A stretch of DNA of 59,432 nucleotides from Minisyncoccia bacterium (GCA_038207395.1 JBBQZW010000001.1:208862-268293), one strand, 5' to 3'. Positions 27,359 through 38,507 are shown, counted from the stretch's first letter. The notes: generated from the letters alone by a model not told the origin. A program made the numbers and translations.

Positions 27359-28660
27359 CTAGCGAGCAATCCCAACGTGCGGAATGTTGAGTGTCTTTTT
27401 CCGATAATTAATATCGAGAAGTAACTTAGGGCGTTTATAGATCTTACGTTTCTTTTGCGTCTCAGCTTCGCGTGCTATCGCTCGAGTACTCGCCGCTAAG
27501 TAGAGCGTGTTCCGGCCATACTTTTTGTTGAGCTGATCCATGACACTGAGGAGTGGTGCTTCAGAAGCCACCCGCGCGCTTTCACCGAACAAATCCGGCA
27601 TTATGGCACGGTCAGGGGTAATACCATACATGCCAAAACCACTTGCGCGATACAGCGTGCCTGCCACATGTACCGAATTAAAATGTTCTTCAACAAGTCG
27701 AAGAAACTCACGCGGGTCGGAAAGAGGAATTGACATGGTGAGGTTCTTTCCTGCATACCGGAACTCTTGAGTTTTAAGATAAAACCGACACATACGAGCC
27801 CGCACGCCGTGCCGGCGTGCCTTTGTACAGGCGCCTTCAATATTCTTTGCGAGTGCTGAAAGGATAAGTTGTTTGTCGGTAGTGGGAGTAAACGTACGAG
27901 ATTGAAGAATAGAACCCATGAGATCATCTTCGCTGGTGGTAAGTCTACGAATAAAATGCCCCTGCATTTCAAGCCAGATATCTCGGTATGGTTTGCTGAT
28001 TGAGTGATCCTTCAGCCAGCCTTCGTCTTTCTTTGCAAAGTCGAGCGCAGTCTTCACACCAAGCTTTTCTAAATAGAGTCCGGTAGAAAATCCCACACCC
28101 CAGATACTGCCAATAGGGAGCGTTTCTAAATAAGTATGCATTTCTTTTGCAGGAATTGAGGTAAATCCTGCCGGCTTTCGATACTTACTCGCAATCTTCG
28201 CTATCGTCTTATTCGGACCAAGTCCAAGTCCAAACGTAATACCTAAGTCCGTCTCAAGACGCTCTTTTATAAGAAGCGCAATCTTCTCATATGACATACG
28301 GTACTTTGATCGAAGACCCGTAATATCCGCAAAACATTCATCAATACTGTATTCCTCTACTTCAGGAGTGAATTCGCGTGCAATGTGGTACATGCGTTTG
28401 GCGTAAATGGAATACGCCGTATAGTCTCCGGGAACGATAATGACCCCCGGACAGATGCGTTTCATTTCCTGAAGGGTCATCCCGCGCGAAAGCCCAAGCT
28501 TTTTACCTTCAACAGAAACTGACGTTGCGGCACCGCGTTCACCTCCCGTCACAACCACCTTTCCGCGTAAGGTATGATCTAACGCCTGTTCAACAGAGGC
28601 AAAAAATGAATCCGCATCAAAGTGGAGAATGGCACGGGGAAATGAGCGGGTCGAAAGCAT
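27359..28660 (-). CDS. Y-family DNA polymerase (DinB/UmuC-like)
   Basis: HFDADSFFASVE, YSIDE, AKIASK..KP. Confidence 0.92.
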   Translation of the reverse strand: MLSTRSFPRAILHFDADSFFASVEQALDHTLRGKVVVTGGERGAATSVSVEGKKLGLSRGMTLQEMKRICPGVIIVPGDYTAYSIYAKRMYHIAREFTPEVEEYSIDECFADITGLRSKYRMSYEKIALLIKERLETDLGITFGLGLGPNKTIAKIASKYRKPAGFTSIPAKEMHTYLETLPIGSIWGVGFSTGLYLEKLGVKTALDFAKKDEGWLKDHSISKPYRDIWLEMQGHFIRRLTTSEDDLMGSILQSRTFTPTTDKQLILSALAKNIEGACTKARRHGVRARMCRFYLKTQEFRYAGKNLTMSIPLSDPREFLRLVEEHFNSVHVAGTLYRASGFGMYGITPDRAIMPDLFGESARVASEAPLLSVMDQLNKKYGRNTLYLAASTRAIAREAETQKKRKIYKRPKLLLDINYRKKTLNIPHVGIAR

Positions 28661-28681
28661 GGGTCATACATAAATACTCAC

Positions 28682-29245
28682 TTAGTACGTACGGAATGTT
28701 GAGACTACCTTCCCAATAATTTCCCCTTCGCGTGGGTGAATATCGGGATACGCTTCATTCGCCGCTTCTAAACAAAGCTGACCATTCTTTCGACGAAGAT
28801 ATTTAAGCGTATATCCGTCCTCCGTAAGAGCAACAACAATCTGATTTACCTGCACGTCTTTCGTGCGCTCAAATACCACCAGATCTCCGCTTTGAATACC
28901 TGCATCAATCATGGAGTCTCCTTCAACCGTAAGGAGATAACTCGCGTCGGGGTGTGGGAGAAGGTATTCGCCTACAGTAATAGTGTCAGCAAGTTCCTCC
29001 TCGGCGGGTGCAGCAAAACCTGCACGAATGTGTCCCAAAAGAGGAGCGCTGTAGAGTCCTGCTGCAGGGATAAGCTTCCCGGTTTTATCTTTCTCTACGA
29101 TACCGGCTTTTATAAGCTGTTCTGCTACGTAGAAGGCAGAACTACGGCTAGAGAGCCCTAAGACAGCCATAAGCTCCGTAATAGAGGGCATGCGCTTGTT
29201 CGTGCGGTAGAACGAACGGACCTTGTCAGTAACGCCGGGTTTCAT
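28682..29245 (-). CDS. lexA: LexA-like repressor (HTH + S24 peptidase)
   Basis: N-terminal wHTH, AG cleavage site (IRAGF), GDSM Ser, TLK Lys. Confidence 0.85.
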   Translation of the reverse strand: MKPGVTDKVRSFYRTNKRMPSITELMAVLGLSSRSSAFYVAEQLIKAGIVEKDKTGKLIPAAGLYSAPLLGHIRAGFAAPAEEELADTITVGEYLLPHPDASYLLTVEGDSMIDAGIQSGDLVVFERTKDVQVNQIVVALTEDGYTLKYLRRKNGQLCLEAANEAYPDIHPREGEIIGKVVSTFRTY

Positions 29246-35614: not shown

Positions 35615-35690
35615 TGGAGCCATCTCGGAGGTTCGAACTCCGGACCTTTTCGCTACGAGTGAAATGCTCTACCAACTGAGCTAAGATGGC
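35615..35690 (-). tRNA. tRNA-Thr(CGT)
   Basis: GCCATCT/AGATGGC stem, CT-CGT-AG loop, TTCGAAC T-loop, CCA. Confidence 0.92.
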
Positions 35691-35705
35691 GACTACCGTA
35701 CGATA

Positions 35706-36167
35706 TCATATTCGCTTTTCTCGAGCGAGTCGAGCAAGTTCTTTCGCTTCTTGGGCGCGCTTACTTGGGGCACGAAATGGCCGACCATTTCCCTTGTTAC
35801 TTCCGGCGAATGTCGGATTCAAAGCATCGCAATTTGGACATATGAGCCGTAAATTCGCTTCTGTGTTATTTCTCCAATTGCCATCTATGTGATCCGCGAC
35901 AAGTGGTACAACTTTTGTCTTTAGATTTACTTCTGACCAATCACACAAATGACACTTATTATTAAATTTTTCTCTAAGAAAACGTTTAATTTGATTTGTG
36001 ACAATACCCATACTACTTAATCCACTTACTTTTTTATCTTTCCAGGCGTCAATATATTTTTTATATTCATACTCACGTTGGCAAGCATTGCTGCAATATT
36101 TATAAAAAGAACGATATGGATCTTTGCCGCACATCAAACAAGGAGTCCGAGGCTTCTTCGCATTCAT
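35706..36167 (-). CDS. Free-standing HNH endonuclease with N-terminal zinc finger
   Basis: CLMC..YCSNAC; CHLC...DHIDGNWRNN..NLRLICPNC; AT-rich; lies between two tRNA-Thr genes. Confidence 0.85.
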   Translation of the reverse strand: MNAKKPRTPCLMCGKDPYRSFYKYCSNACQREYEYKKYIDAWKDKKVSGLSSMGIVTNQIKRFLREKFNNKCHLCDWSEVNLKTKVVPLVADHIDGNWRNNTEANLRLICPNCDALNPTFAGSNKGNGRPFRAPSKRAQEAKELARLAREKRI

Positions 36168-36265
36168 ATATACAGCATACGAGCCGGATCCTTTGGACCC
36201 GGCTCGTATTGATGTTCACAGCACTTATGCACGATATCTTTTCTTTATCTCGGCACCAAAGATAT

Positions 36266-36299
36266 TTGAGCCGATGGGATCACTTGAAGCCCGATCTAC
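36266..36299 (-). repeat. Degenerate duplicate of the tRNA-Thr(GGT) 3' half
   Basis: TTGAGCCGATGGG at 36266-36278 equals 36305-36317; continues as ..TTGAA..CCGA.CTAC. Confidence 0.7.
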
Positions 36300-36307
36300 A
36301 AACATTG

Positions 36308-36568
36308 AGCCGATGGGCAGAATTGAACTGCCGACCTACTCCTTCGCTTACACCTCCCCTCTAAACCACGCGGAGAAGGGCTAGACTGTATCTTCATCTC
36401 TAAGAGATGCCCTTGTCAGTCGTTCGGGCGTACACCAGTGAGATATACGCCACGGTCTTGGCCTGTGGGGCTATTAACCGTAATTCGGGATTCACCTGGG
36501 AATCACTTCCCAGGTGGGCGGAGTCTGCGACCCACCATGGAGTTGCTCTACCCCTGAGCTACATCGGC
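36308..36568 (-). tRNA. tRNA-Thr(GGT), intron-containing (exons 36534-36568 and 36308-36344)
   Basis: Spliced sequence GCCGATGTAGCTCAGGGGTAGAGCAACTCCATGGT|AAGGAGTAGGTCGGCAGTTCAATTCTGCCCATCGGCT folds into a full cloverleaf; CCA not encoded. Confidence 0.92.
36345..36533 (-). ncRNA. 189-nt group I intron at tRNA position 36/37
   Basis: 5' exon ends in U, intron ends in G; P2 CACCTGGGAA-GTGA-TTCCCAGGTG; P7 GACTG/CAGTC; P8 CATCTC/GAGATG; J8/7-P7' AAGATACAGTC. Confidence 0.88.
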
Positions 36569-36587: not shown

Positions 36588-37337
36588 CTACGGCATTTCT
36601 ACGACTTTTTCAATGCTTGATTCCTTCGGCTTTTGAAAGTATCCCAGCCAGTAGCTTCGTTTGTACTTTCGTCCGGCGACCATGTTGTAGTGCTCAACGC
36701 GTTCAAGAGAAAGTGGCGTGACATACGGACTATAGGTATCAGTAAGGGTCTGCTTCGTAAACGTTTTCTCAGTAATACCAAGGTCCGGATGAACATAGGT
36801 ATCCGGATCACTTCCCGGGAATCGCTTTACGAGTTCTTTTGCATTAGCATCAGACTCAAGAGAAAGTGCTCGGAGGAATAGGTATCCGCCCGGTTTCAGC
36901 ACCCGCGCAATTTCAGAAAGATAGATTGCTCGCTCATCATCATTTAATGAGTTAGATGACGTAACATCAAGGACAATATCTACAGAAGCAGTTGGGAGCT
37001 GAAAAGCTGCACCGATATTTTGTGAACGGTAGTCGATCGTTTGGTCTCCGTGCGCGGCTATCTTACGCGCCATCGTAAGCGCTGTTTCAGAGAATTCGAA
37101 TCCAATAACATGGGCACCGTGGTTGGCGAAATAAAAGCTGTTACGTCCCGTACCGGAACCCAAATCCAACACGTTCAAGGCTTCCATATCAATCGGTTCC
37201 CCTATCTTTTTATGTTCCTTTTTTAACCAACGCATAAAGCGCACCACATCAGCCTGTGGAACATTGCTTGGTGAAAGCATCTTAGAAGAGCGATATTCTC
37301 GCTCCCAGCCTTCTTTTTGGTTCTGTGAAGCACCCAT
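36588..37337 (-). CDS. Class I SAM-dependent methyltransferase
   Basis: VLDLGSGTGRN, LKPGG. Confidence 0.88.
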   Translation of the reverse strand: MGASQNQKEGWEREYRSSKMLSPSNVPQADVVRFMRWLKKEHKKIGEPIDMEALNVLDLGSGTGRNSFYFANHGAHVIGFEFSETALTMARKIAAHGDQTIDYRSQNIGAAFQLPTASVDIVLDVTSSNSLNDDERAIYLSEIARVLKPGGYLFLRALSLESDANAKELVKRFPGSDPDTYVHPDLGITEKTFTKQTLTDTYSPYVTPLSLERVEHYNMVAGRKYKRSYWLGYFQKPKESSIEKVVEMP

Positions 37338-37983: not shown

Positions 37984-38058
37984 TGGTGCCGGCGGGTGGA
38001 GTCGCGCCACCGTCTAGGGTTTATGAGTCCCTCGTTCTAACTCTTGAACTACGCCGGC
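37984..38058 (-). tRNA. tRNA with CAT anticodon (elongator Met or Ile2), non-canonical loops
   Basis: GCCGGCG/CGCCGGC stem, CT-CAT-AA loop, T-arm GGTGG-CGCGACT-CCACC, ACCA end. Confidence 0.85.
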
Positions 38059-38507
38059 GTGAGTGACTAACTGCCCAATTCGTTCAATATACGCAAGTAT
38101 TTTGTATCGAATGGATGTACCTTTTGCAACGTATAGTGCCATAACACCATAATACATATCATGGTTCTCGTACAGCTTCCGACCCTTCGGAAGAAAGATT
38201 GTTTTCCTAAATTGAACTTGTGGAATTGATAGTACATTCGACCAATATTCCAACAACAACTTTTCTCTATCAAGGTGGATATTACTAATAAAGATTCGAG
38301 GGTAGAAAAAGGAATAAGGTACCTCAAAGCATTCAACAAACCAACGAATCATTAGCTGTATAACTACCGGATCTGAGTTAGTCATTATTAGAGACATATT
38401 TCTTGAAGACTTGGATCCTTCACCCCAAGTACTTTCGCAATCTCTTTAATACTTTTGCCTTCTCTGCGCAGTTGAAAGGCCCGTAGCTTTTCTTCAGATT
38501 TCGCCAT
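38014..38507 (-). pseudogene. HTH plus LAGLIDADG-like protein disrupted by an internal deletion/frameshift; 3' end overlaps tRNA(CAT)
   Basis: Frame 1 (38507-38388) MAKSEEKLRAFQLRREGKSIKEIAKVLGV; frame 2 WGEGSK..MTNSDP..IRWF..YWS..GV; frames meet at TACTTGGGGTG (38421-38431). Confidence 0.6.

Follow-up and report, generated by a model that had tools for sequence, protein, structure and literature searches.

An HNH endonuclease gene tied to tRNA-Thr(CGT) in Patescibacteria as a candidate self-repressing homing endonuclease

The free-standing HNH gene that lies between two tRNA-Thr genes in the window (the whole stretch of 59,432 nt that was analysed) is probably a selfish gene that is tied to the tRNA-Thr(CGT) gene directly downstream of it, while the neighbouring intron is not its partner. 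We lean towards the view that its product is an anticodon-cutting, self-repressing, free-standing homing endonuclease of tRNA-Thr(CGT) genes. The genes of this clade have a fixed tie to tRNA-Thr(CGT), a patchy and host-independent distribution and a conserved leaderless promoter, and they are under purifying selection. A repeat in their promoters mirrors the tRNA gene, the tRNA alleles beside them are altered, and orphan tRNA 5' halves found at some of the loci end at the anticodon. The resemblance of the promoter palindrome to the tRNA gene suggests where the HNH protein cuts and how it switches itself off.

The window belongs to the 723-kb genome G000 of an ultra-small Minisyncoccia bacterium (completeness 95.6%). 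Judged by the HNH protein, the nearest named relatives are Patescibacteria records, e.g. Kaiserbacteria. The order of genes on the minus strand is a methyltransferase gene (36588-37337), the intron-split tRNA-Thr(GGT), a 143-nt spacer, the HNH ORF (36167-35706), tRNA-Thr(CGT) (35690-35615) and prfB, a release-factor-2-like gene that was named from its sequence. The following features are of importance for the analysis:

35706..36167, minus strand: free-standing HNH (His-Me) endonuclease gene, 153 aa, recognized by its ORF, family searches and residue conservation
HNH protein, cysteine sites: N-terminal 4-Cys zinc finger (C10, C13, C25, C29) and second 4-Cys site (C72, C75, C110, C113)
HNH protein, predicted active site: D92-H93...N101...D114, with residues 110-114 forming the motif CPNCD
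35615..35690, minus strand: tRNA-Thr(CGT), the gene to which the HNH family is tied, with a rare A38G at 35653
35636..35670, minus strand: putative target dyad in tRNA-Thr(CGT), consisting of AGAGCA, 17 nt with the anticodon arm, and RGGTC-N5-TT
36177..36209, minus strand: promoter palindrome of the HNH gene, probably a divergent copy of the operator-like inverted repeat of the family
36174..36179, minus strand: -10 element TATGCT of a leaderless promoter, 6 nt before the ATG
35705..35733, minus strand: promoter-like site at the HNH 3' end by consensus match, with a -10 element TATGAT that overlaps the stop codon
36266..36297, minus strand: degenerate copy of the tRNA-Thr(GGT) 3' end, with a 13-bp exact core at 36266-36278
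36307..36344, minus strand: tRNA-Thr(GGT) 3' exon, called by ARAGORN on the spliced form
36345..36533, minus strand: ORF-less group I intron of 189 nt after U36 of tRNA-Thr(GGT)
36534..36568, minus strand: tRNA-Thr(GGT) 5' exon, called by ARAGORN on the spliced form

These features confirmed what the original prediction had described at this locus, namely an AT-rich zinc-finger HNH gene with its own promoter between the two tRNA-Thr genes, a degenerate tRNA 3' copy with a 13-bp core, a hairpin over the HNH -10 element and an intron that splits tRNA-Thr(GGT). The GC content of the HNH ORF is 39%, as compared to 46.8% for the genome, which places it in the lowest 2.4% of equal windows. The promoter-like site at the 3' end of the gene is placed to transcribe tRNA-Thr(CGT), and similar elements are visible in homologs. 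ARAGORN found 38 tRNA genes in G000, with single Ala and Pro isoacceptors; others may be unassembled or intron-split. At 27359-29245 on the minus strand, inspection of the translations by eye revealed a lexA-like gene and, after it, one that resembles a Y-family polymerase gene. Another AT-rich ORF of 127 aa (38014-38397, minus strand) overlaps with its 3' end the 5' end of a tRNA-Met gene, and a weak homolog of it is located directly before Thr(CGT) in locus L122. Pfam and PHROG searches with this ORF gave no match, and its Atlas matches were all under 0.9. It presumably resembles a single-motif LAGLIDADG-type gene and could represent a second selfish gene with a link to a tRNA.

The homolog search with the HNH protein returned 1249 proteins, and an Asp follows the last CxxC in 119 of the top 120 homologs. 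In the CPNCD clade, which is represented by 91 distinct genomic copies, D92, N101 and D114 are present in all copies and H93 in 90, and the eight Cys are near-invariant. Internal stops were found in 2 of the 91 copies, and the median dN/dS of 0.08 (for the unsaturated ones among 36 close pairs) indicated purifying selection. Asp-His at the first strand, the structural Asn and the zinc-bound CxxC pairs are present, as in HNH (His-Me) endonucleases. A His or Asn that would follow the last CxxC as a metal ligand is absent from the clade; a sister clade has His at this position (CPNCH), and Asp recurs there in scattered viral relatives. According to the available text of PMC6083498, T4 endonuclease VII loses its activity but still binds when the residue after the last CxxC is exchanged for Asp (N62D). 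The caution that the final D of CPNCD makes activity uncertain was, therefore, fair, but the residue is a trait of the whole clade and not a decay of this copy.

Six PHROG HNH families match the protein (best E 2e-17). The Atlas also names an HNH endonuclease, with one match carrying the automatic name F-TflIV. Pfam found HNH_3 alone, below its cut-off, and the HNH homing endonuclease chain 1u3e aligned weakly over the active-site motif (E 0.3). The predicted model of the protein (pLDDT 83) had no Foldseek match at E 0.001 or better, and the search of solved structures likewise gave no significant match. The best fold match was weak (Z 4.8, rmsd 4.1, 73 aligned), and nearly all top fold matches were HNH domains, though weak. 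The protein is predicted to form a homodimer, with a score of 0.57 versus 0.09 for the best control, a contact agreement of at least 46% and a pLDDT of at least 76; a score at the mark used for dimers was obtained for 20 of 30 solved homodimers as compared to 1 of 23 monomers, and the presence of a similar complex among solved structures could raise the score. The predicted interface is formed by residues 77-88 and 110-120. Since it includes D114, the model would put two active sites near the dyad.

With one exception, the CPNCD-type HNH genes are located within 200 nt of tRNA-Thr(CGT) (90 of 91). The HNH gene was upstream of the tRNA gene in 76 cases and downstream in 2, nearly always on the same strand and directly upstream. 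Its own upstream neighbour is variable and can be Thr(GGT), Gly(CCC), Asp or no tRNA. The sole gene away from Thr(CGT) (L360 1919-2326) follows Thr(TGT). It sits in a dense tRNA cluster, in which all Thr genes are atypical. The CPNCH sister clade adjoins Thr(TGT), cyanobacteria included, and farther clades of the family (L019-L030) adjoin Leu(TAA), Ser(TGA) and His(GTG). A conserved gene for a partner protein was not seen near the HNH gene; the tRNA genes are its only constant neighbours, and the upstream genes vary. The original prediction of an integrase-free, tRNA-Thr-directed endonuclease that probably cuts at the anticodon loop, thus, holds in spirit, while the partner and the target that it assigned, the intron and tRNA-Thr(GGT), do not agree with the almost exclusive neighbourhood to Thr(CGT).

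The CPNCD clade is distributed in a patchy manner: 24 of 401 genomes of the order contain it, as do 8 of the 36 further genomes compared within the genus. Thr(CGT) sites with and without the gene occur within one genus and within the order, and genome G018 has an empty site. Distances between HNH genes were unrelated to the distances between the corresponding prfB genes (rho 0.04, n=66). Host independence rests on these distances, while the HNH tree is a quick tree with 32 of 63 forks open. The HNH gene, thus, occupies a fixed intergenic site without being present in all relatives and has a history independent of the host, as expected of free-standing homing endonucleases. A travelling cassette of the HNH gene and the whole tRNA gene was not supported, since the distance of the whole tRNA tracks prfB and not the HNH gene. 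The anticodon arm alone follows the HNH gene weakly (r = 0.15, p = 0.002, one of four tests). Relatives of the HNH protein were present in 156 phage records. A tRNA gene was found at a distance of up to 1.5 kb in 62 of 65 distinct viral cases and of up to 300 nt in 50 of 65, and in phages iF6 and HdH2 the annotated HNH relative ends directly before tRNA-Thr. The best viral matches are at most 62% identical, and the closest viral one of the CPNCD type is not beside Thr(CGT). The plasmid search revealed one distant record of HNH relatives.

The TATGCT element of the window was not listed by the consensus promoter scan. A TANNNT element 5-8 nt before the start was present in 51 of 78 homologs, as compared to 1.8 per offset further upstream, and 6 of the 78 have a Shine-Dalgarno word before the start. 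The common TANNNT near the start together with the rare Shine-Dalgarno words argues for a leaderless promoter. An inverted repeat is located upstream of TANNNT at 43 of 76 loci (3.1 in shuffles), and it was found at the fixed position in 10 of 13 held-out loci, which had not been used for the matrix. The exact form ACCA-N16/17-TGGT is present in 36 of 88 CPNCD-type promoters (shuffle mean 0.2) and in 15 of 25 non-cyanobacterial CPNCH-type promoters (shuffle mean 0.03), and in none of the 6 promoters of cyanobacterial relatives. The repeat usually flanks the -35 region in the CPNCD clade and overlaps the -10 element in the CPNCH clade, and its outer bases are clade-specific. Genome-wide, ACCA-N16/17-TGGT showed no excess in G000, which favours a self-operator over a host regulon, and the latter was rejected. 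The strongest genome-wide match of the operator matrix in G000 (C4:22090-22130) lies on a contig without an HNH homolog.

The hairpin in the window has 15-nt arms, a z-score of -5.9 as DNA, and overlaps the -10 element. It fits a looser pattern of the repeat and is unique in the genome under the strict form; a genome-wide repeat was rejected due to the single copy. Its spacer is one base below the shortest class of the family, and it is absent from the high-scoring matrix matches. Strong hairpins are not conserved upstream of the 78 homologs, among which that of the window is the strongest. Judged from these sequence features, the hairpin is probably an atypical, divergent copy of the family repeat.

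Within tRNA-Thr(CGT), the half-site matrix matches best from the variable loop to the T-loop (GGTC-N5-TT). Read in antisense, the tRNA gene presents this variable/T-loop half, then 17 nt with the anticodon arm and then the D-stem half. The two halves of the operator differ in the same way as the two sides of the tRNA gene, T-arm and D-arm: T at position 5 was found in 20 right versus 6 left halves (p = 0.003) and C at position 7 in 18 versus 4 (p = 0.002), and 50 of 58 left halves have TT. The sequence TCGTA did not occur within any of the 58 operator spacers. The tRNA genes of G000 contain 14 matrix matches, while 2.1 were expected. By sequence comparison, the fixed inverted repeat over the leaderless promoter, thus, mirrors the tRNA gene from the D-stem to the T-loop, minus the anticodon.

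Within the order, the GGTC motif of Thr(CGT) is intact in 13 of 32 HNH-linked genes versus 64 of 77 HNH-free genes (p = 2e-5). For the genus alone, the values are 5 of 9 and 19 of 22, and the difference is not significant (p = 0.15). In Thr(TGT), GGTC is intact in 3 of 11 genomes with a sister-clade gene versus 102 of 112 without it; these counts were made by eye, and for 2 of the 11 genomes with the gene, the tRNA lies on a different contig end from it. The whole proposed site is kept by 12 of the 32 HNH-linked alleles. Weaker deviations of HNH-linked alleles were also seen in other conserved blocks of the tRNA (p = 0.005 to 0.03), and the allele change is, therefore, not strictly site-specific. 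Since, in addition, the allele tests are uncorrected for relatedness, they give support and not proof. Altered alleles were expected to mark HNH sites, which held for one of the two seen among 30 class-level loci: L353 has a relic HNH C-terminus, and L379 is without an HNH trace.

The Thr(CGT) allele of the window keeps both half-sites and has a G at position 38 (35653). A38G was equally rare in HNH-linked and HNH-free Thr(CGT) genes (1 of 76 each), and a family-wide role in self-protection was rejected for this reason. The exchange is real in this lineage, as it is found in zero-mismatch contigs from runs X1, X3 and X4 (two studies; one possibly the same sample). G38 mismatches the last pair of the anticodon stem. 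A38 is needed for t6A37. The tRNA-Thr(CGT) of the window may, thus, be hypomodified, and Thr(TGT), which is encoded on contig C3, could decode ACG.

Of 91 HNH loci, 6 have an orphan tRNA-Thr 5' half upstream, as compared to none of 105 HNH-free loci. As judged by eye, 5 of these 6 halves stop at positions 33-36, and the left half of the repeat starts there. Orphan halves that end at the anticodon would result from an anticodon break that was repaired by homology on the tRNA side only.

Taken together, we propose the following mechanism. A homodimer of the HNH protein would straddle the anticodon arm of the tRNA gene by binding AGAGCA and, 17 nt apart, RGGTC-N5-TT. It would cut at the centre of the dyad, where the anticodon would confer specificity for the isoacceptor. 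Repair from an HNH-bearing donor would then copy the operator, promoter and gene in front of the restored tRNA gene. Binding of the same dimer to the anticodon-less mimic over its own promoter would lead to self-repression. The linked tRNA alleles would drift to resistant forms, by A38G in the window and by changes in the variable loop elsewhere. The intron and the 3' duplication would be independent neighbours, and the intron would at most hitchhike or incidentally shield Thr(GGT).

Splicing out 36533-36345 resulted in a tRNA that ARAGORN called Thr(GGT), while the unspliced form was miscalled as Arg(GCG). In many relatives, intron-split Thr(GGT) of this class is miscalled by ARAGORN as Arg(GCG), His or Pro. 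Rfam did not detect an intron family for the 189-nt insert. An alignment of 32 of the 35 distinct introns (three long ones were omitted) revealed an invariant U at -1 and an invariant terminal G in all 32 and an invariant P7 (GACUG/CAGUC), with double changes at 27 of 45 predicted pairs. The insert, thus, has the U at -1, the terminal G, a P4-P6-P7 core and covarying peripheral stems, as is typical of group I introns. The intron-less form, joined at exactly these ends, was present in DNA runs X1 and X2. By its sequence, the intron appears to be an ordinary representative of a known class (bioRxiv 2020.01.27.920355). The available text of this preprint reports 21 classes of compact ORF-less tRNA introns; like these, the window intron is compact and ORF-less, has U at -1 and a terminal G, and lies in the anticodon loop. 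Genome G058 has more intron-split tRNAs upstream of the Thr pair (L112 177-492 and 1591-1885), for which the ARAGORN calls were Leu(CAA) and Asp(GTC).

The 13-bp core of the 3' duplication is present in two copies in the genome, both at this locus (36317-36305 and 36278-36266), with a chance estimate of 5.5e-5. The relative G018, which is the top prfB match, has identical Thr(GGT) exons with neither the intron nor the HNH gene at the locus, and it carries the same degenerate 3' copy with 34 of 35 bases identical. The duplication is, therefore, independent of both; an insertion scar of the HNH gene was rejected. An integrase-made tRNA island was also rejected, as the cores are 39 bp apart and the HNH gene lies outside of them. 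The identity of the 3' copy (window 36266-36297, L131 6821-6855) is to be compared with 78% for the prfB protein, and the copy is more conserved than expected of a dead scar.

The locus had originally been read as a possible collaborative homing unit: the HNH protein would cut Thr(GGT) genes without the intron, donors would be protected by theirs, and the two elements would spread jointly. In line with this reading, the intron is mildly enriched at HNH loci. The first sample comprised 100 regions upstream of prfB (32 of the genus, 68 of the order), chosen independently of HNH as best prfB matches with enough contig. Both Thr genes were resolved in 72 regions, of which 7 had both elements, 3 the HNH gene only, 15 the intron only and 47 neither (7/10 versus 15/62, p = 0.007). 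In a larger sample that also included HNH-anchored order loci, the intron was present beside 12 of 25 HNH genes and at 16 of 64 HNH-free loci with the gene order of the window; this was significant when pooled (p = 0.045) but not in the stratified test (p = 0.087). The two flanking half-sites are also present in Thr(GGT), where the intron would move them apart, and the flanks of intact Thr(GGT) are slightly changed beside HNH (10/13 versus 47/48 intact). However, Thr(GGT) near the 91 CPNCD-type loci was intron-bearing at 20, intact at 23, and not found in the DNA compared at 48 (13 of them short). The proposed check of co-occurrence across related genomes revealed that the intron is common without the HNH gene and follows the host, which is the outcome that the original prediction had itself named as speaking against it. 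The partial correlation of intron distance was significant with prfB (r = +0.33, p = 0.002), in contrast to that with the HNH gene (r = -0.18, p = 0.89), although n=15 gives low power to both tests. Intron and HNH gene, thus, do not co-vary, and the duplication is unrelated. The co-occurrence data largely refute collaborative homing, and we give it hardly any credence. Hitchhiking, shared ancestry or incidental protection could each account for the remaining weak excess of the intron.

Three further explanations do not involve the intron. The exchange of His to Asp may have ended cutting, leaving a catalytically silent or weak, self-regulated binder of tRNA genes that is kept by the host or moved passively. 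The inactive but still binding N62D variant of endonuclease VII, the fixation of D114, an operator-like repeat that requires binding only and the retention of the full site in many linked alleles are all compatible with such a protein. The near-invariance of the general base H93 and of D92, the patchy, host-independent distribution, the orphan halves that end at the anticodon and the recurrence of Asp in scattered viral relatives speak against it, and we regard this explanation as rather unlikely. It is improbable that tRNA-cluster phages deliver the gene as a passenger, with recombination between phage and host tRNA genes and no homing between cells: most of the phage relatives do lie in tRNA clusters and HNH relatedness ignores the host, but the low identity of the viral matches, the different location of the closest CPNCD-type one, the almost complete lack of stops and the purifying selection in chromosomal copies, and the promoter and repeat that these copies keep argue against it. 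Even less probable is an action on the tRNA itself, e.g. as an anticodon nuclease in abortive defence with the adjacent tRNA gene as target or antidote. The clades match single isoacceptors despite widely varying tRNA bodies, and His-Me defence effectors (PtuA/PtuB, Cap5, retron) are among the weak fold matches, as would suit such an enzyme, but what the repeat mirrors is a double-stranded gene, and its two half-sites keep a constant distance from each other and are placed over a promoter. The predicted symmetric dimer and the lack of a conserved partner protein gene nearby also argue against an RNA-directed enzyme.

A homing endonuclease of tRNA-Thr(CGT) genes, as we favour it, has parallels in known systems. 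As far as described in the available text of PMC2330249, T4 SegB is likewise a free-standing gene among tRNA genes and recognizes a conserved tRNA-gene sequence. It spreads with the flanking tRNA genes, and its own genome keeps cleavable sites under tight expression control (PMC2330249). SegB is a phage gene of the GIY-YIG type, which reads a T-loop motif of many tRNAs and cuts at 3' ends (PMC2330249), whereas the protein described here belongs to another nuclease family, is chromosomal, is tied to one isoacceptor and would cut at the anticodon. The F-TflI/II/IV proteins of T5 are, as mentioned in the same source (PMC2330249), also HNH endonucleases in tRNA clusters; they are phage-borne and distant, and the likeness is one of family and location. 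HNH genes in phage tRNA clusters are also mentioned for mycobacteriophages (PMC6409571, in passing) and T5 (PMC10644984), in the available parts of these papers. In the T5-like phage HdH2, the homolog HdH2_00062 (PHROG 1271; 31.5% identity) ends at the first base of tRNA-Thr. With regard to self-repression, the closest parallel is I-TevI, which is a monomer. According to the available text of PMC2988022, I-TevI binds an operator that resembles its homing site without a properly placed cleavage sequence, thereby blocking its own promoter, and cuts this operator about 100-fold less than the homing site. I-TevI is an intron-encoded GIY-YIG enzyme, while a palindromic putative operator for a predicted dimer is present here. 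F-CphI of cyanophage S-PM2 is also a free-standing His-Me endonuclease beside an ORF-less group I intron, that of psbA; this intron interrupts the target of F-CphI, as far as covered by the text available (PMC6083498), whereas here the putative target is another, uninterrupted tRNA gene, and intron and HNH gene do not co-vary. A literature search, with most subscription papers outside its scope, found no description of this HNH family in Patescibacteria. The operator-like repeat that appears to mirror the tRNA gene, the altered linked alleles in two sister clades, the orphan halves fused to the repeat and the predicted homodimer are new here.

The tempting story of co-homing of intron and nuclease is, thus, removed and replaced by one that can be tested, with concrete predictions for a widespread, uncharacterised nuclease family: a 35-bp target, a cut position and an operator. 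Tentatively, this may extend to the whole family in Patescibacteria, as small dimeric His-Me homing endonucleases with one clade per tRNA isoacceptor, which would read the pseudo-palindrome of the tRNA gene, cut at the anticodon with an H-N-D active site, repress themselves via an anticodon-less mimic and drive change in essential single-copy tRNA genes; we see this generalization as possible but doubtful. If our interpretation is true, the last metal ligand of a His-Me nuclease can be an Asp, and anticodon-specific DNA nucleases of about 150 aa would become a set of enzymes open to study. It would also mean that free-standing homing is active on the chromosomes of ultra-small bacteria and reshapes their essential tRNA genes.
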